From sequence record PQ724393.1: DNA of 64,000 nucleotides; one strand, 5' to 3'. The notes beneath the pieces were generated by a model. It made no database searches and was not told the origin of the DNA. It saw only the letters and a program-made list of their open reading frames with translations. The stretch is from a phage. The position numbers were made by a program, and so were the translations under genes. Within the stretch, counting starts at the first letter, position 1. Each line of letters begins with the position of its first letter. Of this stretch, positions 4,090-57,544 are shown piece after piece.

Positions 4090-5744
<1,655 letters not shown>

Positions 5745-10940: not shown

Positions 10941-13900
10941 ATGGCCGATATTTTAAAACCTGCATTCCGTGCTACATCCGGACTCGATGCTGCGGGCGAG
11001 AAAGTTATCAATGTTGCCAAAGCCGATTACAATGTATTAGATGATGGCGTCAACGTTGAATTCTTTATAGATGAGAACACCATCCAGGCGTACGACGAGA
11101 CGCGCGGATATAAGAATGGGTTTGCCGTAATCCATGACCAACGTATCTGGGTTGCTCAACGTGATATCGCTGCACCAGCCGGAACTTTTGTACCTGGTTA
11201 TTGGACCGCTACCCGTACCGACCCTAAATGGATTACCGTAGCGTCTCCTACACGCCAGCTGGCTTCCGGTGAATATATTGCGGTGGATTCTGCTGCTAGC
11301 TTTACTACATTTACCCTGCCTCCGAACCCTACTGACGGTGATACAATCGTAATCAAGGATATTGGTGGTCGTGTAGGTTATAATGAAATTAAGCTCCAGT
11401 CTAGTTCTGCTCCAGGCGGCGGTAATCAGAAAATTGTTCGTTTTGGTAATCAGTTCACTGAGACCTTAATTACGAAGCCTTTTTCTTATAATATGATTAT
11501 CTTTGCCAACCGTTTATGGCATTTCTGGGAAGCAGCTAATGAAGAACGTGGTATTCGTGTAGAACCGAACACCGCTCAGTTCCAATCACAAGCGGGTGAT
11601 AACGTTTTGCGCCGTTATACTTCAGGTGCAGTAATTAAGTTTACTCTTCCTAAGTATGCGAACCAAGGTGATATTATTAAAACCGTTGATATCGATGGTT
11701 TAGGAAGTAAGTTCCACTTAATTGTAGAAACGTTTGATGCTTCGTCTGCATTAGGTAAACCTGGGCAGCATAGTATGGAATTCCGTACCTCCGGCGATGG
11801 ATTCTTTGTTTATAACTCTACCGAAAAATTATGGTATGTTTGGGACGGTGATCGTCAAACTCGTTTACGCGTAATTCGTGACGATGTTGAACTCTTGGCT
11901 AACGAAAGCGTTATTGTTTTTGGTCCTAATAACACGACACCACAGACAATTAATATCACATTACCTACAGGCGTAGCCCAGGGTGATGTAGTCAAGATTG
12001 CTCTGAACTATCTCCGTAAAGCTCAGACGGTAAATATTAAGGCCGCTGTAGGAGATAAAATAGCTTCTTCGGTTCAATTGCTCCAGTTCCCTAAACGTTC
12101 TGAATATCCGCCAGATACTGAATGGGTATTGAATGATGTATTGACCTTCAATGGTAACTTAAGTTATACTCCGGTTATTGAACTGAGTTATATTGAAGAC
12201 TCCACTACAGGTGGCAAATATTGGGTTGTTGCTCAGAACGTTCCTACTGTAGAACGTGTAGATTCTAAAGATGATTTAACCCGTGCTCGTCTTGGTGTTA
12301 TTGCTCTGGCGTCTCAGACCCAAGCAAACGTCGACCATGAAAATAATCCTGAAAAAGAACTGGCTATCACCCCACAGACTTTAGCCAATCGTGTAGCTAC
12401 CGAATCACGTCGTGGTATTGCTCGTATTGCTACTACTGCTCAGGTAAACCAGAACACAACTTTCGCGTTCCAGGACGATTTGATTATTTCTCCTAAGAAA
12501 TTAAACGAACGTACTGCAACCGAAACTCGTCGTGGTGTTGCTGAAATTGCTACGCAAGTTGAAACTGATGCCGGTGTTGATGATACAACCATTATCACTC
12601 CTAAGAAGCTACAGACGCGCCAGGGAACTGAAAGCCTGTCTGGTATAGTAAAATATGTATCTACCACAGGAACCACTCCTGCGACTTCTAGAGCAACTGT
12701 AGGTACTAACGTTTATAATAAGAACACAACTACTTTAGTTATTTCTCCTAAAGCTTTAGACCAATATAAAGCCGATCAAAATAACCAAGGTGCTGTATAT
12801 CTTGCTACGCAAGCCGAAGTTAATGCGGGTGCTACTAACCCAGGTTTTAGTAACTCGGTTGTCACACCTGAAACATTGGGTGCTCGTCGTGCTACTGATA
12901 CTAATCATGGTTTAATTGAAATTGCTACGCAAGCAGAGACTGATACTGGAACTGATTATACTCGTGCGGTAACGCCTAAGACGTTAAATGACAGGAATGC
13001 TACTCAAACACTTACTGGTATTGCTCGTATTGGTACTCAAGTAGAATTTGATGCAGGTGTATTAGATAATGTTATTTCAACTCCGTTGAAAGTTAAAACA
13101 AGATTTAATGATACTGCTAGAACTTCTGTCTCAGCAGCCAGTGGTTTGATTGAATCAGGAACCTTATGGAACCATTATACACTAGATATCCGTGAAGCAA
13201 GTAATACTCAACGTGGTACAGCTCGTTTGGCGACCCAAACTGAAGTTAATACTGGTACCGATGATAAAACAATCATCACTCCGCTTAAGCTTCAAGCTAA
13301 AAAGGCTACCGAAAACGCTGAAGGTATTATCCAACTCGCTACTCAGGCCGAAGTTATTGCGGGTACGATAAGTAATAAAGCGTTTAGTCCCAAGCATTAC
13401 AAATATGTCGTCCAACAGGAAAAATCCTGGGAAGCTACTTCTGCTCGTAGAGGATATGTTAAATTAACCACAGGTACCGCCACTTGGGAAGGCGATGATA
13501 CTAATGGCTCTGTTGCTAACCTGGCTAAATTTGAAGACGATGGTTTTGCTATTTCACCACTTCAGATGAACACCGCATTAACTCACTATCTTCCTATTAA
13601 AGGTAAGGCTTTTGACTCCGATAAATTGGACAACCTGGATAGCTCTCAGTTCGTCAGGAGAGATATCGACCAAATAGTTGAAGGAACATTAACCCTTCGT
13701 AAAAACATCAGAATCGATGGCCAGTTAACTACAGGTGGTACAGGTGAGTTTGGTGGTTCTTTAGCTGCTAATTCTACATTTACTATTCGTAATACAGGTG
13801 CTTCAACTCGTTTGGTATTTGAAAAAGGACCACAAACTGGAAATAACCCGTTTCAAACCATGAATATCCGAGTATGGGGTAACCAGTTTAGCGGTGGAAG

Positions 13901-14840
13901 TAATACAAGTCGTTCTACTATATTTGAAGTTGGTGATGAAACGTCTAATCACTTCTATTCACAGCGTAACGACGCTGGTAATATTACTTTTAGTATCAAC
14001 GGCACAGTTCAACCGATTAACGTTGATGCATCCGGAACATTGAATGCTAATGGTGCGGCGACATTTGGACGTTCAGTGACTGCACAGGGTGAATTCACAT
14101 CTTATAGTTCAAACGCATTTAGAGCAATTAACGGTAATTATGGTTTTATTATTCGTAATGCCGGTAATGACACCTATTTTATGCTCACCGCGGCGGGTGA
14201 ACAGACCGGTGGATTTAATGGATTACGTCCATTAATAATTAATAACCAATCGGGCCAAGTAACTATTGGTGAAAGCTTAATCATTGCCAAAGGTGCTACT
14301 ATAAATTTGGGTGGTTTAACAGTTAACTCGAGAATTCGTTCGCAGGGTACTAAACCTGCTGACCTTTATTCGAGAAAACCTAATGCCGATAATACAGGCT
14401 TCTGGTCCGTTGAAGTTAATGATTCAGCTACATATAATCAGTTCCCTGGTTATTTTGAAATGGTCGAAAAAGTTAACGAAGTAACAGGATTGCCTTACTT
14501 AGAACGTGGTGCAGAGATTAAATCCCCTGGCACATTGACCCAGTTTGGTAATACCCTGAATTCGTTATACCAAGATTGGATTACTTATCCTGCTAATGCC
14601 AACGCACGTACTACTCGTTGGACCCGTACATGGCAGCAAAGTAAAAATGCATGGTCGGGTTTTGTTCAGGTGTTTGATGGCGGTAACCCTCCTCAACCTT
14701 CTGATATCGGCGCCCTTCCGGCGGATAACGCTTCGATGAGTAACTTGACCATTCGTGACTGGTTACGTATTGGTAACGTTCGTATAGTTCCTGACCCGGT
14801 AACTCGTTCTGTTAAATTCGAATGGATTGATACACCATAA
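10941..14840 (+). CDS. 34: Long tail fiber proximal subunit gp34
   Basis: 1299 aa, repeated beta-rich fibre motifs, first gene of the 34-38 late block. Confidence 0.85.
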   Translation: MADILKPAFRATSGLDAAGEKVINVAKADYNVLDDGVNVEFFIDENTIQAYDETRGYKNGFAVIHDQRIWVAQRDIAAPAGTFVPGYWTATRTDPKWITVASPTRQLASGEYIAVDSAASFTTFTLPPNPTDGDTIVIKDIGGRVGYNEIKLQSSSAPGGGNQKIVRFGNQFTETLITKPFSYNMIIFANRLWHFWEAANEERGIRVEPNTAQFQSQAGDNVLRRYTSGAVIKFTLPKYANQGDIIKTVDIDGLGSKFHLIVETFDASSALGKPGQHSMEFRTSGDGFFVYNSTEKLWYVWDGDRQTRLRVIRDDVELLANESVIVFGPNNTTPQTINITLPTGVAQGDVVKIALNYLRKAQTVNIKAAVGDKIASSVQLLQFPKRSEYPPDTEWVLNDVLTFNGNLSYTPVIELSYIEDSTTGGKYWVVAQNVPTVERVDSKDDLTRARLGVIALASQTQANVDHENNPEKELAITPQTLANRVATESRRGIARIATTAQVNQNTTFAFQDDLIISPKKLNERTATETRRGVAEIATQVETDAGVDDTTIITPKKLQTRQGTESLSGIVKYVSTTGTTPATSRATVGTNVYNKNTTTLVISPKALDQYKADQNNQGAVYLATQAEVNAGATNPGFSNSVVTPETLGARRATDTNHGLIEIATQAETDTGTDYTRAVTPKTLNDRNATQTLTGIARIGTQVEFDAGVLDNVISTPLKVKTRFNDTARTSVSAASGLIESGTLWNHYTLDIREASNTQRGTARLATQTEVNTGTDDKTIITPLKLQAKKATENAEGIIQLATQAEVIAGTISNKAFSPKHYKYVVQQEKSWEATSARRGYVKLTTGTATWEGDDTNGSVANLAKFEDDGFAISPLQMNTALTHYLPIKGKAFDSDKLDNLDSSQFVRRDIDQIVEGTLTLRKNIRIDGQLTTGGTGEFGGSLAANSTFTIRNTGASTRLVFEKGPQTGNNPFQTMNIRVWGNQFSGGSNTSRSTIFEVGDETSNHFYSQRNDAGNITFSINGTVQPINVDASGTLNANGAATFGRSVTAQGEFTSYSSNAFRAINGNYGFIIRNAGNDTYFMLTAAGEQTGGFNGLRPLIINNQSGQVTIGESLIIAKGATINLGGLTVNSRIRSQGTKPADLYSRKPNADNTGFWSVEVNDSATYNQFPGYFEMVEKVNEVTGLPYLERGAEIKSPGTLTQFGNTLNSLYQDWITYPANANARTTRWTRTWQQSKNAWSGFVQVFDGGNPPQPSDIGALPADNASMSNLTIRDWLRIGNVRIVPDPVTRSVKFEWIDTP

Positions 14841-14848
14841 GAGGTAAT

Positions 14849-15973
14849 ATGGAAAGATTTATGGCTGAATTTGGACAAGATTACGTTCAAATTCCTGTAC
14901 TATCTGAAAATAATGCCGTTAGTTATAAACTTAGTATAGCAGGGAGCTGTACTAAGTCTACTAAAAAGGCTTATATCAAATTTCAAGATGAGGACTTCGG
15001 TCCTCAGAATTTCCAATCCGGCCTAAATTTGGTTGAAATAGACCCGACAAATAACACAATAGTAACTACAAAATCATACTCATTTACCAAAGACCATGAT
15101 GTTATTTCCCAAGCGTTTATAACTTATATTTCATCTATACCTGCTGGTAGAATTGTTTGCATTATTTCTTCCGGCAAATTAAACGCCTCACAAGTATTAA
15201 TTGATTGGTTTAGGGCTTCCGGTTCTACAGCATTTCCGGATAAATGGCTTATTGATAAAGTGGATACTTCTTATTCAGCTTTTTATGTTTCAGGAAGAAA
15301 TGCTATTGTAATGGAACATGTGCTTTATAACGATGGCGTTTTGGTAGAAGATGTTTCCACTCCATTAGAAGTCGTTTATGATAACTTTAATGATGTAGGT
15401 GGGACCGGGTTCCCTGTTAGAGTCATTGAAGATGAAAATACTTACTATAGCGGAGCTACTCAAGAAATTAAAAGGTTTCCTACCAATTCCGCCATAACTC
15501 CTTGTGCCGGTTATAATATGGTCCCTGGAGATTTCTTTTATCTTAAATTCCAAATGACCTATGACCAGGCTTTAAAAGATTTGGGGACGACTCAGATGTC
15601 CATACGATTTTTTAATGGCCAAGAAATGCTTCAATCCACTGATATCAATATTCCTGTAGGAGCAGGCTCTCCACCGGCAGGCGCATGGATGACTTTTGAG
15701 CGCGTAATAGAAGTTCCGCCAAATGCCAATGGTTTTACATTATATTGTAGAAAAACTGTCTCAGGCGGAGTAGGAGGTGTTAGGAATGTTATGTTTGGTG
15801 AAATAGCTAGACCTGAAGATACCCCTAAATCCGCTGAAATCGGTGTTAATGGTATTCGTATGAGCTATGGTACCGAAACCCGTTCAATGGGTAATGTTAT
15901 TGCACAATTGAATGACAAATCATCTGGTAACGCAGGTAAAGTATTTGTTCAAGAATTTAAAGAAAAATATTAA
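14849..15973 (+). CDS. 35: Long tail fiber hinge protein gp35
   Basis: 374 aa, size and synteny. Confidence 0.7.
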   Translation: MERFMAEFGQDYVQIPVLSENNAVSYKLSIAGSCTKSTKKAYIKFQDEDFGPQNFQSGLNLVEIDPTNNTIVTTKSYSFTKDHDVISQAFITYISSIPAGRIVCIISSGKLNASQVLIDWFRASGSTAFPDKWLIDKVDTSYSAFYVSGRNAIVMEHVLYNDGVLVEDVSTPLEVVYDNFNDVGGTGFPVRVIEDENTYYSGATQEIKRFPTNSAITPCAGYNMVPGDFFYLKFQMTYDQALKDLGTTQMSIRFFNGQEMLQSTDINIPVGAGSPPAGAWMTFERVIEVPPNANGFTLYCRKTVSGGVGGVRNVMFGEIARPEDTPKSAEIGVNGIRMSYGTETRSMGNVIAQLNDKSSGNAGKVFVQEFKEKY

Positions 15974-15994
15974 GGGACCGTAAGGTCCCTTTTT
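15974..15994 (+). terminator. Intrinsic terminator GGGACC-GUAA-GGUCCC + UUUUU after gene 35
   Basis: GC stem, GNRA loop and T-run seen directly right after the gp35 stop. Confidence 0.65.
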
Positions 15995-15996
15995 GC

Positions 15997-16004
15997 TATA
16001 AATA
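15997..16004 (+). promoter_or_regulatory. T4 late promoter TATAAATA upstream of gene 36
   Basis: Exact octamer about 26 nt before the gp36 ATG. Confidence 0.6.
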
Positions 16005-16029
16005 CGTTATCTAATAAAGAGGAATAACT

Positions 16030-16677
16030 ATGGCTGATTTAAAATTAGGCTCAACCGCCGGAGGTTCCGTTATATGGCACCAAGGCAACTTTCCGCTGAC
16101 GCCGGTATCAAATGATATTTTATATAAAACCTACAAAATCTATACCGAATTTAATAAGCCTCAAGCTACAGATAACGACTTTGTTTCTAAGGCAGCCGGA
16201 GGTACATATAAAGGTACTGTTAATTTTGAAAAAGGTATAACTTTTAACGACTCTGCCGGGTATGCTATTAAATTGGGTGCCAGAGAAGGCGGGCAACCTT
16301 TTACCGCTTCATTTAAGATTAAAGGGTCTTTTGGCCTTGAAACTGAAACGGGGACCCCATTTGTAATCTTCAACCCGAGCACTACAGTAGGAGCTAACCG
16401 TCTTACAGTAATGGGTGATATCCTTGGTCGTCAAATTAAAGACGAATCAGGCCGAGTGTTTTCTCCAGGGAATGCTCCGACAAAAGCCCAGGTAGGATTA
16501 AGTGATGTGGATAACGCAAAACAGGTCCAAATAAATAATAGTAACATACAATCCATGGCTGGTGTTCTTTCAGCCCCAAATTTCATATCTAGGAACCCAG
16601 GTACATTGAACGAACACGTTCCTCGTATTGACCAGGTTGTTCTTAGAGGTACATCTGAAGATTTTGGATATTATTAA
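16030..16677 (+). CDS. 36: Long tail fiber distal connector gp36
   Basis: 215 aa, size and synteny. Confidence 0.7.
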   Translation: MADLKLGSTAGGSVIWHQGNFPLTPVSNDILYKTYKIYTEFNKPQATDNDFVSKAAGGTYKGTVNFEKGITFNDSAGYAIKLGAREGGQPFTASFKIKGSFGLETETGTPFVIFNPSTTVGANRLTVMGDILGRQIKDESGRVFSPGNAPTKAQVGLSDVDNAKQVQINNSNIQSMAGVLSAPNFISRNPGTLNEHVPRIDQVVLRGTSEDFGYY

Positions 16678-16685
16678 GAGGCATT

Positions 16686-19600
16686 ATGGCTACTTTAAAA
16701 TCGATACAATTTAAAAGAAGTAAAATAGCAGGAGCCAAGCCTACTGCAGCCCAGTTAGATGAAGGTGAACTGGCTATTAACTTGCGTGACCGTACCATTT
16801 TTACTAAGTCAGACCAGGGACAGATTATTGACCTTGGTTTTGCAAAGGGTGGTACTGTCGATGGCGATGTAACTATTAATGGGACCCTGAATTTAAACGG
16901 TCCTGAAATTGTTGCCTCTGGTGGTTATATAGAATTTAACTATCGTACGACAGGTAGTGGCTCTTGGGCAGGCCAGCACAGGGCCAAAGCTCCTATTTTT
17001 GCTGATTTAAGTGCGGCTGCATCTACTTCAGAATACAACCCACTGATTAAACAACGCTTTAAAGATGGAACATTTTCAGCAGGCACATTAGTTTCGGAAG
17101 GTAGTTTTAAATTCCACTATATTAATGAAGCTGGTGATTCAAAATATTGGACCTTTAATCGTAATGGTAATTTTCAAGTTGATACCGGTAGTTTAATGGT
17201 ATCAGCAGGTAATATTTCTGCATCAGGCAACATAAATTCGGCTAATGGTATTATCACCGGTCCTGAAATTGTTACCAAAAATATTAATTTCAGTACAAAA
17301 TCATTTGTAGCTAATGCAAATATAGGATACGACTGGGTTTCATTACCTACCTGGGTTTATAATCCTCCTGCTGATGGTTCTGATGATACTACTAACGGTT
17401 TAAACTATTTGCGTAAATTGCGTGCATCAAGTGCATCAAGTATTTTCCATGAAATTGCTGATTGTCGCAAAGGTAAACCACAAGAAATTTCTTGGTGGAC
17501 CGGCGTAGGACCATCGTCTTTCCAATGGGCTTTTGATAACTCTGGACGTATTACCGCAGGTAAATCAATTTCTGTAGGTCTTCCTGATAATGGTACAAAT
17601 GGTCGTTACCCACTAGATTCAGCAATTTCTATTGGTATTGCAATTGGTGATAATGACACCGGTATTAAATGGGTTCGTGACGGCGTTATTGATTTCATGG
17701 CTAACAGTATTTCAACCGCTACCATTTTGAATAACGGTATTAACAGTACTAAAAAATTGACGGTCGGTTATAGCCGTGATTCCGGCTCTACTTGGGATTT
17801 CCCAAATAACAACCAGGCAATGTTTACTGCTCGTACCGATATTGATGGTAATAATAATGGTGACGGTCAGACTCATATCGGTTATAGCAGCAATGCCAAG
17901 ATGTATCACTATTTCCGTGGCACAGGTCGTATGTCTGTTAGTATGGGTGATGGACTTCTTGTTGAACCGGGTATTTTAGATATTAAAACCGGTTCAAATT
18001 CATTAAATTTACGTGCTGACGGTACTGTTGCTTCAACGAAAAGAATTAAACTTGATAATGGATTGGTTCTTACCGGTTCTAGACCTGATGGTATTCAACT
18101 TGATGCACCCACATCAGTAGATGGCACTAAATCTATTTTGTGGGCTGGTGGTACTCGCGCAGGTCAGAATAAAAACTATGTAACTATTAAAGCATGGGGT
18201 AATGCATTCAACTCAACTGGTGATAAAACCCGTGAAACCGTATTTGAAGTTGGAGATGGACAAGGATACCATTTTTATTCACAGCGCATATCCCCTACCG
18301 GAGTTGAAACAGTTGGCCCTGTGATTATTCAAATGGCAGGTAGTTTATTGGCTCGTGGTACGTTAAACACTGATGGCAATCTTTATGTGAAAGGATTAAG
18401 TACACATGAAGGTACTGTGACCATGAATAATGGCCTTCGTTTAACTGGCGGCGCTAATATAAGCGGCCAGGTTAAAATTGGTGGTGTTAACGATGCATTG
18501 AGAATTTGGAACGACCGATATGGTGCTATTTTCCGTCGCTCAGAAACATCATTACATATTATCCCGACCAATGAAAATGAAGGTGAAAACGGTCCGATAA
18601 GCAACCTTCGCCCGTTTAGTATTGAATTAGGTACTGGTGCCATTAATATGGGCCATTCTTTAATGATAGGCAACTCGGCCCGCGGTGATGGCCTGCTGAA
18701 TATTGATACCAAAGCATTCTTGATTACAATTAACAGTCATTCGAAAATTAAACCTAATTATCGTATGGACTTAGAAAACGGTGCTTATATAAATGCTTTA
18801 ATGGATGCAAACGGTCGTTCAGCTGGCGCAGGTTCATTCGCGTCCCAGAATAATGAAAACGTCCGCGCTCCATTCTACATGAATATCGACCGTGATGATA
18901 CCAGCACTTATGTTCCAATGATAAAGCAACGTTATGTTCAGGGTAATGGATGTTTTTCAATAGGTACTTTGTTGAATAATGGCAACTTCCGCGTCCATTA
19001 TCACGCTGGTGGTGACGGTGGTTCGACTGGTGCTCAGATTGCAGATTACGGTTGGGAATTCACTAAATCCGGTGATTTTGTATCTCCACGACGTGTCTCG
19101 GCAGGTGGTTCGGTTTATCTAGGTACGGATGGTAATATCACTGGTGGTTCTGGTAATTTCTCTAACCTGAATACTACTTTAGACCGCAAAGTTACCACGG
19201 GGTGGATTAACTATTCTTCTGAAAGTGGCTGGTATAAATTGGCAACAGTAAATATGCCTCAAGGTGCAGCTACGGTCCAATTTAAAATAACAGGCGGTTC
19301 CGGTTTTAACGTTGGTATTTTTAGACAAGCAACAATTAATGAAATTGTATTGCGTTCCGGTAATAATACACCTAAAGGAATTAACGGTGTTTTATGGCAG
19401 CGCGAAACTGATGCTATTAAAGACATTGCATATATTAATACCTCAGACGATGAGTATGATGTTTATATTAATTGTGGTACTTATTTAAATAGACTTACCC
19501 TAGAATATAGCACTTCAGAAAACGCTTCGGTAGTAGTTTATGGATTATATGGGCCTACGCAATCACCGGTAGAAGAGCTTCCTGTAGATATTGTTAAAGG

Positions 19601-20663
19601 TCGTGTTTTTAAACTTCTTAATAATAGCTCAGATGTTTTTGACGCTGGTAGTTCTAATATTTCTACAAATGCCACCTTTGTTGCTAATACAACTGTAGGT
19701 TTCCGCCATAAATCCAATGGTGATGAAAGTGGTTCTGCCGCTACTCTGTTTTATAATGATGGTACTACGTTCCATATATTATTAACAGATAAGAACACCG
19801 ACACAGATAAAACTAAAGCCTCTGGTTCTAACAACAGTTTAAGGCCTTTTTCTATCAATATTGCTTCTGGTAAAGTAACTATTTCAAACTCTATGAGTGT
19901 TTCTGGTGTTGCAGAGTTTTATAACGGTCTTAATATCAAAAACAATGGAAGCATTAATTTTGATAAGTCTGGTGCGAACCCGAGAAACATGCGTATATTC
20001 CATGCCGGTGATGCTTCACGTGGAAACCGTATTGAAGTTGCGGATGAGTCTAATTACTTAGTTTATTGGGAAAAAACTCCGGGCGGCGCAAACCGTTCTT
20101 CATATAACCAATGTGAAGTTAATGGTATAACTACTCTTAACGTTAATACTAAAGTGAACACCCCACAAATTGGAGCATTTGGTGTTAACACAACTAATGG
20201 ATTTGGTGGTAACTCAATTGTAATAGGTGATACCGATACAGGTTTCAGACAAGTTGGCGATGGACTTTTAGAAGTTTGGACCAATGCCGTTCGCCGGATG
20301 CGATTCCAGAGTGGTGACACTTATTCTGATATGAATATAAATGCTCCAAACGTTTATATTCGTTCGGATATCAGATTGAAATCTAACTTCAAACCTATTG
20401 AAAATGCTCTTGAAAAGGTTGAACAGCTCGACGGTTTAATCTATGATAAAGCTGATTATATTGGTGGAGAGGTTGTTCACACTGAAGCAGGTGTTATTGC
20501 ACAGAGCCTGGAAAAAGTATTACCTGAAGCTATTCGTGAAGTTGAAGATATCAAAGGTAATAAAGTTCTGACCGTTTCGACTCAGGCCCAAGTGGCGCTG
20601 TTACTTGAAGCGGTTAAAACCCTGTCGGCTAAAGTTAGAGAACTTGAAGCTAAATTAAATTAA
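16686..20663 (+). CDS. 37: Long tail fiber distal subunit gp37 with C-terminal intramolecular chaperone-like domain
   Basis: 1325 aa; C-terminal ~110 aa carries SDIRLK (S74-type autoproteolysis signature) and a coiled-coil tail. Confidence 0.85.
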   Translation: MATLKSIQFKRSKIAGAKPTAAQLDEGELAINLRDRTIFTKSDQGQIIDLGFAKGGTVDGDVTINGTLNLNGPEIVASGGYIEFNYRTTGSGSWAGQHRAKAPIFADLSAAASTSEYNPLIKQRFKDGTFSAGTLVSEGSFKFHYINEAGDSKYWTFNRNGNFQVDTGSLMVSAGNISASGNINSANGIITGPEIVTKNINFSTKSFVANANIGYDWVSLPTWVYNPPADGSDDTTNGLNYLRKLRASSASSIFHEIADCRKGKPQEISWWTGVGPSSFQWAFDNSGRITAGKSISVGLPDNGTNGRYPLDSAISIGIAIGDNDTGIKWVRDGVIDFMANSISTATILNNGINSTKKLTVGYSRDSGSTWDFPNNNQAMFTARTDIDGNNNGDGQTHIGYSSNAKMYHYFRGTGRMSVSMGDGLLVEPGILDIKTGSNSLNLRADGTVASTKRIKLDNGLVLTGSRPDGIQLDAPTSVDGTKSILWAGGTRAGQNKNYVTIKAWGNAFNSTGDKTRETVFEVGDGQGYHFYSQRISPTGVETVGPVIIQMAGSLLARGTLNTDGNLYVKGLSTHEGTVTMNNGLRLTGGANISGQVKIGGVNDALRIWNDRYGAIFRRSETSLHIIPTNENEGENGPISNLRPFSIELGTGAINMGHSLMIGNSARGDGLLNIDTKAFLITINSHSKIKPNYRMDLENGAYINALMDANGRSAGAGSFASQNNENVRAPFYMNIDRDDTSTYVPMIKQRYVQGNGCFSIGTLLNNGNFRVHYHAGGDGGSTGAQIADYGWEFTKSGDFVSPRRVSAGGSVYLGTDGNITGGSGNFSNLNTTLDRKVTTGWINYSSESGWYKLATVNMPQGAATVQFKITGGSGFNVGIFRQATINEIVLRSGNNTPKGINGVLWQRETDAIKDIAYINTSDDEYDVYINCGTYLNRLTLEYSTSENASVVVYGLYGPTQSPVEELPVDIVKGRVFKLLNNSSDVFDAGSSNISTNATFVANTTVGFRHKSNGDESGSAATLFYNDGTTFHILLTDKNTDTDKTKASGSNNSLRPFSINIASGKVTISNSMSVSGVAEFYNGLNIKNNGSINFDKSGANPRNMRIFHAGDASRGNRIEVADESNYLVYWEKTPGGANRSSYNQCEVNGITTLNVNTKVNTPQIGAFGVNTTNGFGGNSIVIGDTDTGFRQVGDGLLEVWTNAVRRMRFQSGDTYSDMNINAPNVYIRSDIRLKSNFKPIENALEKVEQLDGLIYDKADYIGGEVVHTEAGVIAQSLEKVLPEAIREVEDIKGNKVLTVSTQAQVALLLEAVKTLSAKVRELEAKLN

Positions 20664-20668
20664 GAAAA

Positions 20669-20682
20669 GGGCCTTCGGGCCC
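20669..20682 (+). other. Hairpin GGGCC-UUCG-GGCCC in the 37-38 spacer, abutting the gp38 SD
   Basis: Perfect stem and tetraloop seen; no U tract. Confidence 0.4.
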
Positions 20683-20694
20683 TAAGGATTTATT

Positions 20695-21495
20695 ATGGCA
20701 ATCGTAGGATTACCCGGTTGGGTCGGCCAATCTGCAGTTGACGAAACAGGTCAACGTTGGATGGATGCAGCAATGCGTGATGTTCGTGTAGCTGTTCCGG
20801 GTTGGATGGGTTCGATGGCTAACCAATCAAAAGAAATTTACTTATCTATAGGGGCTAATCATAACTATGATAGGAATACCCTTATAAACTGGATGAGAGC
20901 ACAAGGTGGTGCGCCTGTGGTTATTACAATTACCGGCGACTTGGTATCAAATAGCCGCGGAAACCCTTGCCTGGAATTCCCTAGCAATCTTCCTAACGCA
21001 TATATTCAACTTACCATTAATAGCGGTGTGACTGTTTATGGCCGAGGAGGCCGAGGAGGCTGGACCCATAGCAACGGCAATGGTAATGGTGAGGCCGGCG
21101 GAATAGCCATACAAAACAATGCCGGAACTAAACTTCGTATCCGTAATAATGGCGCTATAGCCGGTGGTGGTGGCGGTGGCGGTGGCATCGCGTATAGGCC
21201 CCATTCAGGTGCTAACTGGCAAGATATAGGCGCTGGCGGCGGTAGACCATTTGGTGCAGCTGGTGGCGGAGGATACTCCGGTGGGGCGGCATCTCTTACC
21301 GGAGCAGGTGGTGGTTATAATTATGGTAACGCGCATTCCGGTGCTGGTGGGAATGTCGGTGCTAAAGGCCAAAACGCTTGGAATGATGGAGGTAAAGTGC
21401 TTAAAGTTGGCGCTGGTGGTAATGCTGGGGCAGCAGTCGCCGGTAATGCTCCTAACTGGCAAAACGTTGGTACGATATACGGAAGCAGAGTATAA
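20695..21495 (+). CDS. 38: T2-type receptor-binding adhesin gp38 with glycine-rich motifs
   Basis: N-terminus MAIVGLPGWVGQSAVDETGQRW, poly-Gly blocks, C-terminal WQNVGTIYGSRV. Confidence 0.8.
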   Translation: MAIVGLPGWVGQSAVDETGQRWMDAAMRDVRVAVPGWMGSMANQSKEIYLSIGANHNYDRNTLINWMRAQGGAPVVITITGDLVSNSRGNPCLEFPSNLPNAYIQLTINSGVTVYGRGGRGGWTHSNGNGNGEAGGIAIQNNAGTKLRIRNNGAIAGGGGGGGGIAYRPHSGANWQDIGAGGGRPFGAAGGGGYSGGAASLTGAGGGYNYGNAHSGAGGNVGAKGQNAWNDGGKVLKVGAGGNAGAAVAGNAPNWQNVGTIYGSRV

Positions 21496-21505
21496 TACCC
21501 CATAT

Positions 21506-21513
21506 TATAAATA
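21506..21513 (+). promoter_or_regulatory. T4 late promoter TATAAATA upstream of holin t
   Basis: Exact octamer followed by AAGGAG SD and ATG. Confidence 0.6.
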
Positions 21514-26587: not shown

Positions 26588-26748
26588 TTCTTGACCAAGG
26601 CTTCCAGAAATTTAACGATTGCATCAATTACGAACCAAGTGCAAATAAATCCAACAGCGAAAGGACCTGGAACCCACACACCAGCAGCAAAAAGGGTTAC
26701 CCACACAATAACAATCACGAGCCAGATAAAAGTATAAATCGGTAGCAT
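26584..26748 (-). CDS. Small hydrophobic membrane peptide, 54 aa
   Basis: Hand-translated; ATGA overlap with next ORF. Confidence 0.3.
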   Translation of the reverse strand: MLPIYTFIWLVIVIVWVTLFAAGVWVPGPFAVGFICTWFVIDAIVKFLEALVKK

Positions 26749-52562: not shown

Positions 52563-53456
52563 TTAAAGGACCACGTCCTCATAACTTGGCATTTCGTGCC
52601 CAGAATGGATATGGGCACCGAAATAAATGAATTCAGCCAGACCAGGATGGAATACTAAACCTGGGTTCTCATGATAAATGATATGCGGTCTTGATTTCAG
52701 AATCTGATAATACTCAACCTTACTCGGTTTGAATTTAACAATCTCTACATCAGGACGATAGTCTTCACGCTTAAATGAATCATTAGGGTTGGTGATATAA
52801 AGACGAGCACCTTCAGCCGCAGCTTGGTCTACAACTCTTTCGAATTGATAGCACTTATCCGAAATACGGAATGGATGGAAAATACCATCAATTTTAATAG
52901 GCGCTAGACCTTCAGAGTAACGCTCAATTACTGCAGGATTAATTACCTTTTGGTCTACAAAAATCTTATCAGAGGATGCACCTCGTGACACCAGGACGTC
53001 TTTCTGGCATTGATTCAGGACTGTAGTATAAAGTGAACGTTCAACTGAAGCCACATCAATATCAATGAACTCGTCGATATAATAACGAGGAACTTCAGGG
53101 TCCATTGTGATATTAAAGTTGAATTGTACAGTATGAGCACCATCATAACCTGTGATATCGGTTACCAGTCCTGAGCAATCATAGTATTCGATTAGTGAAT
53201 CGACTACAAACTCATTTTCAGACCAGAAATGTTTACGGGTTTCATAAGCATTTTCTTTATACCAAAGTGGTACGAAATTCAGTTCTGGGAATAATTCAAT
53301 GCATTCTTTGATATCGCTCGAATTTCTAGGATAAGCCAGATAATCACCTGGACGAGCACGATTTAAATGGAGTTGAAAATTGCCGTCCTTAAGGACGGCA
53401 TATTCACCTGTTTCGTAACTACGCATACTGAAAATAGGAACGATAAACAAACTCAT
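52563..53456 (-). CDS. Unrecognised protein in the T4 beta-glucosyltransferase position; candidate DNA glycosyltransferase
   Basis: 297 aa, ATGA-coupled to gene 42; no resemblance to T4 Bgt that I can recognise; possible DxD-like FIDIDV. Confidence 0.35.
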   Translation of the reverse strand: MSLFIVPIFSMRSYETGEYAVLKDGNFQLHLNRARPGDYLAYPRNSSDIKECIELFPELNFVPLWYKENAYETRKHFWSENEFVVDSLIEYYDCSGLVTDITGYDGAHTVQFNFNITMDPEVPRYYIDEFIDIDVASVERSLYTTVLNQCQKDVLVSRGASSDKIFVDQKVINPAVIERYSEGLAPIKIDGIFHPFRISDKCYQFERVVDQAAAEGARLYITNPNDSFKREDYRPDVEIVKFKPSKVEYYQILKSRPHIIYHENPGLVFHPGLAEFIYFGAHIHSGHEMPSYEDVVL

Positions 53457-54151
53457 TTCAGGAAACCTCGGACGTAGTCAAAATCACGTTCAAACACGTG
53501 TGCACTTACCATGGTGTGGGAATACGTACCTAAACCAACACCACACTGTTCAGCAATAAATGCCATCAGTTTACCCTGCAGATAGAAATCCAGCTGCATA
53601 ACAACAGCGCAGTTTTGTGAACGCATATGGGTGTGTGCATACAAACGCCCGTCACGAATATAATACGTTACCGAATCGGTGCAAGGGTATTCTAAGGATT
53701 CGTCAGAATCAAGGAGGGCTTGGTCTTGTTCTTGGAGAATCTGGAACACAACTCTTCGCGAGTTGGCCTTTTCTTTAAGCTCTTTAAGTAGGGCTGGGAG
53801 TTGGGCCGCAATTCGAGGTCCATAGAAAGTGTTGAAGTTTGCAGGCAATACGTCACTTTTCGGCTTATCAATGAACTTAGCAACATTAGGGTATTCCTTA
53901 AATGCTTCGGCAGCGTCAGTACCACCAGAAATCATAAATTTCCAAAAGGATTCGGCATATTCATAACTGATACGATTGATACGTGGGTCGGTGAATTTAT
54001 AGGTGCTGACATCCAGTACTTCTATAGAAGCAGAACCAATTTCATAACAACGTCCGATACGAGAATCAACTGCAAACTGTGGAGCTTCCAGGATTTCTTC
54101 GTTCATTTGTTTAAATGCATTTTCAAAACTAACAGCGGTAATGTGTTTCAT
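53453..54151 (-). CDS. 42: dCMP hydroxymethylase gp42 (thymidylate-synthase fold)
   Basis: 232 aa; SRRVVFQI and CTDSVTYYIRDGRLYAHTHMRSQN regions align with T4 gp42 motifs. Confidence 0.7.
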   Translation of the reverse strand: MKHITAVSFENAFKQMNEEILEAPQFAVDSRIGRCYEIGSASIEVLDVSTYKFTDPRINRISYEYAESFWKFMISGGTDAAEAFKEYPNVAKFIDKPKSDVLPANFNTFYGPRIAAQLPALLKELKEKANSRRVVFQILQEQDQALLDSDESLEYPCTDSVTYYIRDGRLYAHTHMRSQNCAVVMQLDFYLQGKLMAFIAEQCGVGLGTYSHTMVSAHVFERDFDYVRGFLK

Positions 54152-54684
54152 TTATTCACCTTATTTTCAATATATTCGTTCAGACGTTTTAATTCTACCA
54201 TATCAACATTAAGCAAATTATTATGGCCGTCATGATTTAAGATTTTAAACACGTTTTCAAAACATGTTTCGTATTGCTGGATAGTTAGGTTGAACTCATC
54301 TTTGGTTAATTTAATAAGGTCATCTTCGAAGTCTTCGTCTAATGGGTTGCGAGTTAAAATAACTTCGATAACGTTAAATTCAGATTTAAACCCTTTCCAA
54401 TCTTCCAGTTCTACATAAGGGTCCATTTCACCACGAAGGAATCCCGAGTAAACAATATTACTAGGATACCCACGGTCTAAGATGTAGACAAAATTAGGGT
54501 CTAAAAACTTATACAGAGTTTCAACTAAAGCCTTGTCATTATCAGTCCCTAATGAAATGCATTTGCCATTAATCTTTTTAGGGAAATCAATAAGACGATA
54601 TTTCTTATCAGATAAAAGTGATTCAATTAAAGTAGACTTCCCGGAATTATCCGGGCCGTCGATAACAATGATTTTTGGTTTCAC
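54148..54684 (-). CDS. Thymidylate-kinase-like P-loop kinase
   Basis: Walker A IIVIDGPDNSGKST; TMPK-like DRG...SNIVYSG region; ATGA-coupled both sides. Confidence 0.6.
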   Translation of the reverse strand: MKPKIIVIDGPDNSGKSTLIESLLSDKKYRLIDFPKKINGKCISLGTDNDKALVETLYKFLDPNFVYILDRGYPSNIVYSGFLRGEMDPYVELEDWKGFKSEFNVIEVILTRNPLDEDFEDDLIKLTKDEFNLTIQQYETCFENVFKILNHDGHNNLLNVDMVELKRLNEYIENKVNK

Positions 54685-55079
54685 GGATGATATGCCTTAT
54701 AACTATCAAGAGTTCCTTCACGAACCAATTCTTTAAAGTGGTCTGGACGGATTGCTCGGTCATCGATGATAAAAGTATAACTCGGCTTGTGTGTAAGCAA
54801 ATTGTGATATTTCAATCCAATTTTTTCAAGGTTCTTAACCAATGCAGGAACTACTTCAACCAAGATTCGACCTGGGCCACATGAAGTCATGCCACGGGCA
54901 GTGAATAATGTAATCTCGTACCCTTCATCATAAAGCTTATTAATCATGGACACCATTTCGGTGTCCGGTTTAAAGTTCTCATAATCACGGTCATGGTTCC
55001 AAATCGTGATTGTGTTATCGATATCAAAACATAAATGTGGCTTATTTTCTACTCGATGCGACATTAAATTTTCTTCCAT
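54681..55079 (-). CDS. Small HAD-superfamily phosphatase
   Basis: HAD motif I FDIDNTIT, motif II LFTAR, Lys in THKP, motif IV FIIDD. Confidence 0.6.
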   Translation of the reverse strand: MEENLMSHRVENKPHLCFDIDNTITIWNHDRDYENFKPDTEMVSMINKLYDEGYEITLFTARGMTSCGPGRILVEVVPALVKNLEKIGLKYHNLLTHKPSYTFIIDDRAIRPDHFKELVREGTLDSYKAYHP

Positions 55080-56767
55080 TGTTTGTGGAGTTCAGTAGAA
55101 CCTGTAGGTTTATATTTTACACCAGTTTCCTGGTCAAGCAAAACCCACTTATCAGGACAACGAGTAATAATTTGAGCCGTGATAGGGTCACGAACTTCAT
55201 CGACAAATTCACCAGTAATAAGCTTACGCTTACGAGGATGCCGCTTCAGCAGCACACTCAGTTGGTACAAACCGTTATAATAAGCACCCAGAGCTTTCAG
55301 AGGGTTATTCTTAAAGTAACCTGCCAGAGCCATCCAAATAACAGCAATCCAGAGCTTGTGCTTAAATGTGCACATAGGAATATCGTCTAAAGGCATAACC
55401 TTTTCAATATCAACGAATACACGAGTTCCATTACGAGTTAATCCACCCCATAGAGGGTCTGAGTTAAATTTGTCATAGCCATCGATAGAATAAAGCACCT
55501 TAGCTTCATCATAAATCGCAGGGCCTTTAGAACTATTACCGAAATAACCACGTGGGTCGATGATTTTAATATCACCTTCGTCCGACAGCATAATATTACT
55601 GTAGTGCGGGTCGCCATGAATAAGTTGGTACGGCTCTTTATGTTCAGACAGAATTTCTAGTGCGTGGCGGAGAAGTTTTTCAGGGTCGCCTACTTTGAAA
55701 TCGTTAACATGGGTAATGCCTTGTGGAGCAAAGCCTTCAATCAATCCAGCAATAGAAGCATTACGAATAAGGACCTTGTCCAATACTTCTTTCTTAACAT
55801 CAGAATACCATTGCTCATCGGACGGATTATCGATAGTTCCACCAAATGAACGTAATGCACTAATGACCTTATAAACCATGAGGACTTTAGTTTCTTTAGA
55901 CATAAACCGGTAGGCATCTGCCATGGTGCGACCAAAGATACGTTCCATTTTAATGAATTCGCCTGGAGCAAAGTCTACAATGCTCGGAACAAATTCAGAA
56001 TCAATAGAATTATACCAATTGATTTCTTTAGATTGGATTTCTTTACCTAATTCGTTGGTAGGTACTTTAATAGCCAGATTCTCAGTGAACTCTAATTTAT
56101 TAAATTCACGGTTAATTTCAGAATCTTCATGGGCCCTAGCCAGTTTCAATTTGTCACCGACATCAACCACAAAGTCCAGCTTACGTTCAGTCAAATGGAC
56201 CATCGAATCCAGGTTGTCTGCAAGGTCTTCGCCATAATTAGAACGGTCGAAACCTGTCCAATTAGCCACCTGATACAAACCAACCACACCACCGCCAGTA
56301 CCAATTTCACGCAAGTACGGTTCTTCAAATGTAAAACGACAGTCGGTCCCATAGGTATAACAGTAGTCGTTATCCCACTCAACTTTATGACCTTCAGGAA
56401 TAATATCACACCAGTTAAACAAGACATTATGCCCGATGATATCTTCGGCAATGCAATCGATAGCATGAGCTGAACCGTTGGCCACATCTACGTTACGAAT
56501 AGTGAATTTAGGCTTATCACTGGTAATCATGTTAATGGATTTAATGTAACCCTTAACGAGGTCATTAAATTTGCTGTGAATAACCAGAATAATTTCATCT
56601 GATTGGTTACTATACAAATCATACAAATGTTTTAGTACTGTATGCTGTTTGTAGTTAACCAATACCTTCGGGATTTCGTTAGTAATTGGATACAACCGTG
56701 AGCCAAGACCCGCGCCTAAAATAACAACCTTTTTCATTATCTGTTCCTCAAGTGAATGTAGGTACAT
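55064..56767 (-). CDS. Bifunctional sugar-1-phosphate nucleotidyltransferase / APH-like sugar kinase (start may be at the internal MKKVV)
   Basis: N-terminal RmlA-like ILGAGLGSRLYPITNEIPK; C-terminal kinase Brenner-type motif LIHGDPHYSNIM and IIDPRG. Confidence 0.65.
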   Translation of the reverse strand: MYLHSLEEQIMKKVVILGAGLGSRLYPITNEIPKVLVNYKQHTVLKHLYDLYSNQSDEIILVIHSKFNDLVKGYIKSINMITSDKPKFTIRNVDVANGSAHAIDCIAEDIIGHNVLFNWCDIIPEGHKVEWDNDYCYTYGTDCRFTFEEPYLREIGTGGGVVGLYQVANWTGFDRSNYGEDLADNLDSMVHLTERKLDFVVDVGDKLKLARAHEDSEINREFNKLEFTENLAIKVPTNELGKEIQSKEINWYNSIDSEFVPSIVDFAPGEFIKMERIFGRTMADAYRFMSKETKVLMVYKVISALRSFGGTIDNPSDEQWYSDVKKEVLDKVLIRNASIAGLIEGFAPQGITHVNDFKVGDPEKLLRHALEILSEHKEPYQLIHGDPHYSNIMLSDEGDIKIIDPRGYFGNSSKGPAIYDEAKVLYSIDGYDKFNSDPLWGGLTRNGTRVFVDIEKVMPLDDIPMCTFKHKLWIAVIWMALAGYFKNNPLKALGAYYNGLYQLSVLLKRHPRKRKLITGEFVDEVRDPITAQIITRCPDKWVLLDQETGVKYKPTGSTELHKQWKKI

Positions 56768-56797: not shown

Positions 56798-57298
56798 TTA
56801 AATCTTATCTTTACCGATTTCAATACACCGTTCTATTGCCGCCGGTACTTTGGTCTTGAGCTTATTGATTTGTTTCTTATAATCACGGGCTTTATCGAAG
56901 CTCTCGGTTTCGAGCATTTCGTAATAACGAGCCTCGTGGATGGAAATCTGTAGATTGATATGGTTTACGCACATCGCATACAGTTTCTGCTTTTTGTACA
57001 AATCATCTTGACGCTTCATTTCTGCCTGGTGTTTGGCTAGTACCGCTTCACGCTTAGACTCTTGTTCACGTTGGAATTCGATTTCCCTTTGAGCATATTT
57101 TGCACAGTTATTACCGCATTGATTATTAGCTCGGGTATACACAAGCCCAGAACCAGCACGGAATTTCATTTCACCGTCATATTGTTTCTGTTCAGCTGCG
57201 ATACGAGCTTTACCAACTTCATCAGCCGAAACTGCATCGCCATATTGGACCGCGCAACCTGATAGGAGCATACTCATTGCGATAATTAACTTTTTCAT
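56798..57298 (-). CDS. Putative lipoprotein with coiled-coil region
   Basis: Signal peptide with lipobox LLSGC; charged helical region. Confidence 0.5.
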   Translation of the reverse strand: MKKLIIAMSMLLSGCAVQYGDAVSADEVGKARIAAEQKQYDGEMKFRAGSGLVYTRANNQCGNNCAKYAQREIEFQREQESKREAVLAKHQAEMKRQDDLYKKQKLYAMCVNHINLQISIHEARYYEMLETESFDKARDYKKQINKLKTKVPAAIERCIEIGKDKI

Positions 57299-57307
57299 GG
57301 AATTCCC

Positions 57308-57544
57308 TTACTGTTTAACAATAATGATTTGTGCATTTGATTTACGTTCAGCGACGATGGCCCAGATTAAAGCCACTACCCAACCAATCATCGTCCAACC
57401 CAACAGGAGGTTTAGGAAGAAAATTCCGACATTACTACGAGTGCCTCGCAGAAGAGCCAGAATCCATGGTAAAAAGTAACCGATGAACATAATAACCAGA
57501 GAACCGAATCCTAAAACACCAGCACTAACGATTAAAGCTTCCAT
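57308..57544 (-). CDS. imm: Superinfection immunity membrane protein Imm
   Basis: 78 aa, two TM segments, NLLLGWTMIGWVVALIWA motif; position next to gene 43. Confidence 0.55.
   Translation of the reverse strand: MEALIVSAGVLGFGSLVIMFIGYFLPWILALLRGTRSNVGIFFLNLLLGWTMIGWVVALIWAIVAERKSNAQIIIVKQ

Follow-up and report, generated by a model that had tools for sequence, protein, structure and literature searches.

A fused nucleotidyltransferase-kinase of a Dhakavirus as a likely enzyme of DNA arabinosylation

What does a phage make with a single polypeptide that joins an RmlA-like nucleotidyltransferase to a protein-kinase-like sugar kinase? The question is raised by a 567-codon open reading frame (ORF; 55064..56767, minus strand), the longest listed for this bifunctional protein in a 64,000-nucleotide stretch of phage DNA from sequence record PQ724393.1 (hereafter the window). 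A sequence-only reading had suggested that the protein converts a sugar to its 1-phosphate and then to a nucleoside diphosphate (NDP)-sugar, and had called such a fusion unusual for a phage. On the basis of its domains, its neighbours and its relatives, we propose that it is very likely an AfhE-type bifunctional enzyme of a pathway that arabinosylates DNA cytosines, yielding arabinosyl-5-hydroxycytosine. As such it would provide the pentose, in activated form, for a hypermodification of DNA by which T4-like phages protect their genomes against restriction enzymes and CRISPR nucleases, which is of relevance when phages are chosen for therapy or engineered. The family has already been published, together with its architecture and its role in the pathway; the practical value of the assignment lies in annotation.

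Two catalytic domains in one chain

The protein matches the Pfam family NTP_transferase (PF00483) over residues 13-110 (E 3e-8, 34 bits versus a cut-off of 21.2) and the family APH (PF01636) over residues 356-427 (E 8e-6, 26.2 bits versus a cut-off of 23.2); from here on, residues are counted from Met11 of the ORF, on a protein of 557 amino acids (aa). Since both matches exceed the curated cut-offs, the two-domain claim is more than pattern matching. The fusion described by the sequence-only reading is thereby borne out, and the motifs it quoted (GAGLGSRLYPITNEIPK, HGDPHYSN and IDPRG) translate exactly (Table 1).

In an alignment of 30 homologues with identities down to 30%, the signature residues G10, R14, L15, P17, P23 and K24 of the N-terminal domain are invariant, as are G88, S89, A92, W109, D111, D192, G194, D195 and K198. 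The domain displays the GxGxR(L)xPxT...PK signature, the acidic metal and substrate ligands and the Rossmann-like alpha/beta fold of the PF00483 family. In the C-terminal domain, the invariant residues K224 and E238 are consistent with the Lys-Glu pair seen in protein-kinase-like folds, and H374, G375, D376 and N381 as well as D394, P395, R396 and G397 are likewise invariant; the N-lobe Lys-Glu pair, the Brenner loop HxDxxxxN and the Asp at the DFG position that characterize PF01636 are thus all present. The 59-aa C-terminal tail occurs in the first 15 alignment rows and in the homologues P0062 and P0064, and is absent from the other 13 of the 30.

An AlphaFold2 model built from the homologue alignment comprises two domains, with a mean predicted local distance difference test (pLDDT) score of 91.6 and a predicted template modelling score of 0.87; confidence is lower in the C-terminal tail (pLDDT 70-87). 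A Foldseek search of the PDB retrieved RmlA, inositol-1-phosphate cytidylyltransferase, GalU and MurU for the N-terminal half, and APH(2'')-IIIa for the C-terminal half, which matches choline-kinase/APH folds, so that structure prediction, too, agrees with the fusion. None of the structural matches in the PDB spans both halves. Compared with RmlA and GalU (PF00483), the N-terminal domain is a minimal core of 205 residues that lacks the oligomerisation and allosteric elements of RmlA and is fused to a kinase; its identity to solved transferases is only 13-21%, which is too low for reading nucleotide specificity from sequence.

The N-terminal domain has a GT-A-like fold, and the protein might hence itself be a DNA glycosyltransferase, as was once considered for TH1_060 of Shewanella phage Thanatos and initially for RB69 ORF053c; the Conserved Domain Database assigns the N-terminus to the GT-A superfamily (PMC6024577, PMC12838424). 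However, the GxGxRLxPxT...PK signature is invariant, the top structural matches are all nucleotidyltransferases, the score against glucosyltransferase hidden Markov models is poor (PMC6024577), and the operon encodes a separate GT-B-type transferase. For these reasons we rejected a glycosyltransferase identity, which we regard as extremely improbable.

Translation probably begins at Met11 (ATG at 56737) rather than at the first codon of the ORF. This ATG follows a GAGG Shine-Dalgarno (SD) sequence at a spacing of 8 nt, it has been chosen as the start codon in the annotations of JS10 and KIT01, and 29/29 aligned homologues start at this position; together these observations support the length of 557 aa. 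No ribosome-binding site precedes the first ATG (56767), which falls within a TATAAT-like hexamer. Both lengths, 567 and 557 aa, are in use in public records of the protein. A scan for promoter and terminator consensus sequences gave 17 sites versus 15.7 expected, which is background level, and was not used.

Table 1. Position of the nucleotidyltransferase-kinase gene, its domains and motifs, and the adjoining genes in the window
Feature	Position	Strand	Evidence
Bifunctional nucleotidyltransferase-kinase gene (AfhE-like; RB69 ORF53_52c homologue)	55064..56737	-	ORF, SD, RB69 homology, phrog_4098
N-terminal sugar-1-phosphate nucleotidyltransferase domain, residues 1-205 of 557	56123..56737	-	
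C-terminal protein-kinase-like (APH/choline kinase fold) sugar-phosphate kinase domain, residues 206-498	55244..56122	-	
Nucleotidyltransferase signature GAGLGSRLYPITNEIPK (GxGxRLxPxT...PK)	56666..56716	-	Translation; G, R, L, P, P, K invariant in 30 homologues
Catalytic loop HGDPHYSN (Brenner motif HxDxxxxN; H374, G375, D376, N381)	55595..55618	-	Translation and alignment
IDPRG at DFG metal-binding motif position (D394; P395, R396, G397 also invariant)	55547..55561	-	Translation and alignment
59-aa C-terminal tail (ITRCPDKWVLLDQETGVKYKP…QWKKI)	55067..55243	-	T4-like-phage clade only
HAD-type phosphatase (AfhF-like; RB69 gp51 homologue), 132 aa, or 127 aa from ATG at 55064	54681..55079	-	62% identity, E 1e-56; phrog_1238
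P-loop thymidylate-kinase-like protein, 178 aa, RB69 gp45 homologue	54148..54684	-	38% identity, E 1e-31; phrog_761; GTGA overlap with upstream gene
Thymidylate-synthase-family 5-hydroxy-dCMP synthase, 232 aa, RB69 gp48 homologue	53453..54151	-	80% identity over 231 aa, E 2e-130; Pfam Thymidylat_synt
Putative DNA arabinosyltransferase, 297 aa, RB69 gp46:47 ('arabinosyltransferase 1') homologue	52563..53456	-	70% / 63% identity to gp47 / gp46, E 3.7e-112; phrog_3891
166-aa protein, lipoprotein-type signal sequence (MKKLIIAMSMLLSGC)	56798..57298	-	phrog_1754 (PHROGs: unknown function); no RB69 counterpart

A member of a described family in a Dhakavirus operon

As judged from sequence, the window belongs to a T-even-type coliphage of the genus Dhakavirus (JS10/JS98-like). 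The 5.1 kb around the gene share 96% DNA identity with Dhakavirus genomes (fDHCT2, JS10, JS98, IME281), and the window is colinear with JS10, running across the ends of the linear JS10 record. Genes for gp41 helicase, gp40, UvsX, Imm, DNA polymerase gp43, RegA, gp62 and gp44 lie in the neighbourhood.

The protein matches phrog_4098 over 1-557 of the 559 profile positions (E 6.5e-269), an entry whose function PHROGs gives as unknown, and is 99.5% identical to IME08 gp43. The latter is among the full-length homologues named by Thomas et al. 2018 (PMC6024577), who found upon re-sequencing that RB69 ORF053c-052c encodes one protein of 561 aa, remarked that its composition resembles that of a nucleotidyltransferase and suggested that it takes part in making UDP-arabinose. 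Lee et al. (NAR 2026; PMC13326640) identified the RB69 base as arabinosylated 5-hydroxycytosine, not hydroxymethylcytosine, modelled gp52:53 as a nucleotidyltransferase N-domain and a kinase C-domain, and listed the Dhakaviruses among the genera with a syntenic cluster. With reference to He et al. (Nat Chem Biol 2026), PMC13326640 describes AfhE of Escherichia phage HY126 as a D-arabinose-5-phosphate 1-kinase and UDP-arabinofuranose pyrophosphorylase, with which RB69 ORF53_52c (gp52:53) is equated; HY126 AfhF, according to the same citation, acts after the first and before the second AfhE step: a HAD phosphatase that requires Mg, it turns arabinose-1,5-bisphosphate into arabinose-1-phosphate. 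The protein is thus an ordinary member of an already described, partly characterised family (publications of 2018, 2025 and 2026). Like RB69 gp52:53, DLP3 gp82 and HY126 AfhE, it consists of a single chain of about 560 aa in which a nucleotidyltransferase precedes a kinase.

The operon genes were compared with those of RB69 by tblastn against the RB69 uvsX-to-polymerase cluster. At full length (E 2.6e-111), the N- and C-terminal halves of the protein share 44% and 41% identity with RB69 gp53 and gp52, respectively. The pairs gp52/gp53 and gp46/gp47 are each one gene, split in GenBank through sequencing errors (PMC6024577, PMC13326640). Identity amounts to 47% with the homologue of Serratia phage 92A1 and to 44% with Thanatos TH1_060.

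Five genes follow each other head to tail and are translationally coupled, with stop/start overlaps TAATG, GTGA, ATGA and ATGA, TAATG being formed by the stop codon of the nucleotidyltransferase-kinase gene and the ATG at 55064 of the HAD phosphatase gene. As in RB69, the cluster occupies the uvsX-to-DNA-polymerase slot and combines the enzyme with an adjoining HAD phosphatase, a 5-hydroxy-dCMP synthase and an arabinosyltransferase. The phosphatase contains the motifs DIDNT and IIDD. RB69 gp48 has been shown experimentally to make 5-hydroxy-dCMP, and the arabinosyltransferase function of gp46:47 is an assignment of the same study (PMC13326640).

In RefSeq records and in phrog_1238 the HAD phosphatase is named 'phosphoheptose isomerase'. 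As it has no isomerase domain, this label looks like a propagated misannotation.

The proposed pathway and the order of its steps

We propose that, with ATP as donor, the C-terminal kinase domain would phosphorylate D-arabinofuranose-5-phosphate on its anomeric C1 hydroxyl to form arabinose-1,5-bisphosphate, from which the HAD phosphatase encoded directly downstream would strip the 5-phosphate. The resulting arabinofuranose-1-phosphate and UTP would be converted to UDP-arabinofuranose by the RmlA/MurU-like N-terminal domain, and the downstream 297-aa glycosyltransferase would attach the sugar to 5-hydroxycytosine once the phage DNA has been replicated, the base being supplied by the ThyA-like 5-hydroxy-dCMP synthase of the same operon. 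The two folds, the intact catalytic motifs, the homology to gp52:53 and the gene-for-gene match of the neighbours come from this analysis; for the substrates, the sequence of reactions and UTP as the nucleotide we rely on published work on relatives. The suggestion of the sequence-only reading that a sugar passes via its 1-phosphate to an NDP-sugar in one chain is only partly right: the route published for HY126, as cited in PMC13326640, begins with arabinose-5-phosphate, and the neighbouring phosphatase has to act after the kinase and before the nucleotidyltransferase.

The main rival to the bisphosphate route concerns this order. In a salvage-type route the HAD phosphatase would act earlier, releasing arabinose from arabinose-5-phosphate, and the kinase would, as in the sequence-only reading, phosphorylate C1 of the free sugar before the N-terminal domain forms the NDP-sugar. 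The closest kinase folds include anomeric and free-sugar kinases (maltokinase, glucosamine kinase), and AmgK/MurU and LicA/LicC offer parallels. Yet the HY126 enzymes are reported, in PMC13326640, to proceed via arabinose-1,5-bisphosphate with AfhF acting after the kinase; the fusion to, or adjacency with, a SIS isomerase that makes a 5-phosphate fits a phosphorylated substrate; and removal and renewed addition of a phosphate would be a futile, less economical cycle. We therefore consider the free-sugar order unlikely.

Several points weigh against the AfhE-type assignment. Table 1 of PMC13326640 still gives exactly the free-sugar order for RB69 gp51 and the C-terminal domain of gp52:53 (arabinose-5-phosphate is dephosphorylated, then free arabinose phosphorylated). 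The catalytic activity of the Dhakavirus protein is predicted from relatives, the nearest studied of which are only 41-47% identical, and the connection to the assayed HY126 AfhE would run through RB69 and a secondary citation; HY126 is neither among the best 60 tblastn phage records listed nor among the named cluster members. We found no chemical analysis of Dhakavirus DNA in the literature. JS10 has no homologue of the RB69 isomerase gp55, so that we infer the origin of arabinose-5-phosphate. Finally, purified TH1_060, which is essential for the propagation of Thanatos, has no pyrophosphorylase activity on xylose-1-phosphate, a substrate it does not use (PMC12838424); this result is not contradictory and is uninformative on arabinose.

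For Thanatos TH1_063, a protein of 300 aa with a glycosyltransferase-like fold, UDP-xylose pyrophosphorylase activity has been reported (PMC12838424). Together with the inactivity of TH1_060 on xylose-1-phosphate, this sits oddly with the role assignments in RB69 and HY126.

A reduced gene set and the identity of the sugar

Compared with the RB69 cluster, that of the Dhakavirus differs in genus and in gene content. No homologue of RB69 gp55, the SIS-domain arabinose-5-phosphate isomerase, was detected in the window or in the whole JS10 genome (E <= 0.1), and homologues of gp50 (peptidase-like), gp49 and gp3 (second arabinosyltransferase) are likewise missing from the window and from complete JS10. 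The rIIA.1-to-gene-39 gap of JS10, corresponding to the RB69 gp3 site, holds no annotated gene. The isomerase is an accessory feature typical of RB69 and DLP3, found beside or fused to distant homologues, and not part of the enzyme. The Dhakavirus cluster is thus a minimal version of the arabinosylation pathway. As only one arabinosyltransferase is encoded, its product is probably the mono-arabinosyl form. As no phage isomerase is encoded, arabinose-5-phosphate would have to come from host KdsD/GutQ, and dependence on these enzymes is predicted. In E. coli, KdsD provides arabinose-5-phosphate constitutively as a precursor of Kdo.

The constitutive supply of this precursor also bears on whether the same chemistry could act on another sugar, for example on a host pentose phosphate such as ribose-5-phosphate, which would pass via ribose-1,5-bisphosphate to another NDP-pentose and thence to a different glycosyl-5-hydroxycytosine. 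The lack of a gp55 homologue in JS10, the identity of only 41-44% to the RB69 enzyme and the lack of published chemical data on Dhakavirus DNA are in line with this idea, and Thanatos DNA is reported to carry a pentose whose configuration was left unspecified (PMC12838424). Nevertheless, the availability of arabinose-5-phosphate in E. coli speaks against it, the glycosyltransferase and the phosphatase share 62-70% identity with their RB69 counterparts, which argues for the same sugar, and the Dhakaviruses are grouped with the arabinosylation clusters (PMC13326640). A different sugar therefore seems quite improbable to us. Also improbable is the broader notion that the stripped-down pathway, with neither isomerase nor gp50 and with a single glycosyltransferase, is either wholly dependent on the Kdo precursor pool of the host (KdsD/GutQ) or relies on a kinase that uses another host pentose phosphate, so that a non-arabinose sugar is installed on 5-hydroxycytosine; a possible different pentose is the only residual novelty of the locus.

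The RB69 slot of the arabinose-5-phosphate isomerase is occupied in the window by the gene for a 166-aa protein (56798..57298). We rejected this protein as an isomerase substitute: it carries a signal sequence of the lipoprotein type, contains neither a SIS domain nor any other enzyme domain, and belongs to phrog_1754.

Relation to other sugar-activating systems

The Pseudomonas pair AmgK/MurU, to which the sequence-only reading had likened the protein, consists of a MurNAc anomeric kinase and a MurNAc-1-phosphate uridylyltransferase, two proteins that act on a free amino sugar in cell-wall recycling. In contrast, the phage domains are fused, the kinase is proposed to act on a pentose 5-phosphate, a phosphatase would come in between, and the product would go to DNA. 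A single fused chain in a phage DNA-modification operon does not belong with AmgK/MurU; the likeness is one of fold and logic only. In the LicA/LicC system of Streptococcus pneumoniae, choline kinase and CTP:phosphocholine cytidylyltransferase are separate proteins that use choline and CTP for the decoration of teichoic acid, whereas the phage enzyme would act on a sugar rather than choline and use UTP rather than CTP.

The glucosylation system of T4 (gp42 with alpha- and beta-glucosyltransferases) occupies the same genomic slot and serves the same purpose, post-replication glycosylation of a modified cytosine that protects the DNA. However, T4 draws on host UDP-glucose and needs no sugar-activating enzyme, whereas the phage described here must make its own NDP-pentose, and the T4 base is 5-hydroxymethylcytosine as opposed to 5-hydroxycytosine (PMC13326640).

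Distribution of the architecture

Copies covering at least 80% of the protein were detected by tblastn in 368 of 50,697 phage records, with Escherichia (177 records), Acinetobacter (57), Klebsiella (25), Vibrio (17), Shigella, Serratia, Proteus and Yersinia among the hosts; phages of Tenacibaculum and Synechococcus carry more distant copies. The nucleotidyltransferase-kinase architecture is hence common in large phages, and the view that it is unusual for a phage does not hold. Among the records listed, the Dhakavirus copies are annotated as 'hypothetical protein' or not at all.

In two proteins from metagenomes, P0071 (922 aa) and P0089 (946 aa), HAD, SIS and nucleotidyltransferase-kinase parts are fused in a single chain. 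On the 315-kb, jumbo-phage-like contig JACCDQ012122952.1 (7297..9665), a SIS-domain gene lies directly upstream of a 32%-identical homologue, which suggests the same DNA-sugar pathway outside T4-like phages. Through these fusions and the SIS gene on the contig, the family is tied to pentose-5-phosphate chemistry well beyond T4-like phages. Near the homologue on this contig are also a gene of the Fapy-DNA-glycosylase family and type II topoisomerase genes.

Further observations on the window

Between the gene for the 166-aa protein and imm there are only about 13 nt in the window. About 145 nt of JS10 (26604..26748) are missing here, at 57298..57312; in JS10 they hold the 36-aa ORF EpJS10_0044, which is homologous to RB69p054 ('42-imm intercistronic region').

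At 4294..4713 (minus strand), a distant thymidylate-synthase-family match with 22% identity to RB69 gp48 is the canonical td thymidylate synthase; the phage thus has a true ThyA as well as the 5-hydroxy-dCMP synthase paralogue. The region 13330..21506, which corresponds to the long-tail-fibre genes 34-37, shows little or no alignment to JS10: 14703..16861 matches at 73% identity and is flanked by gaps. This divergence probably reflects host-range variation.

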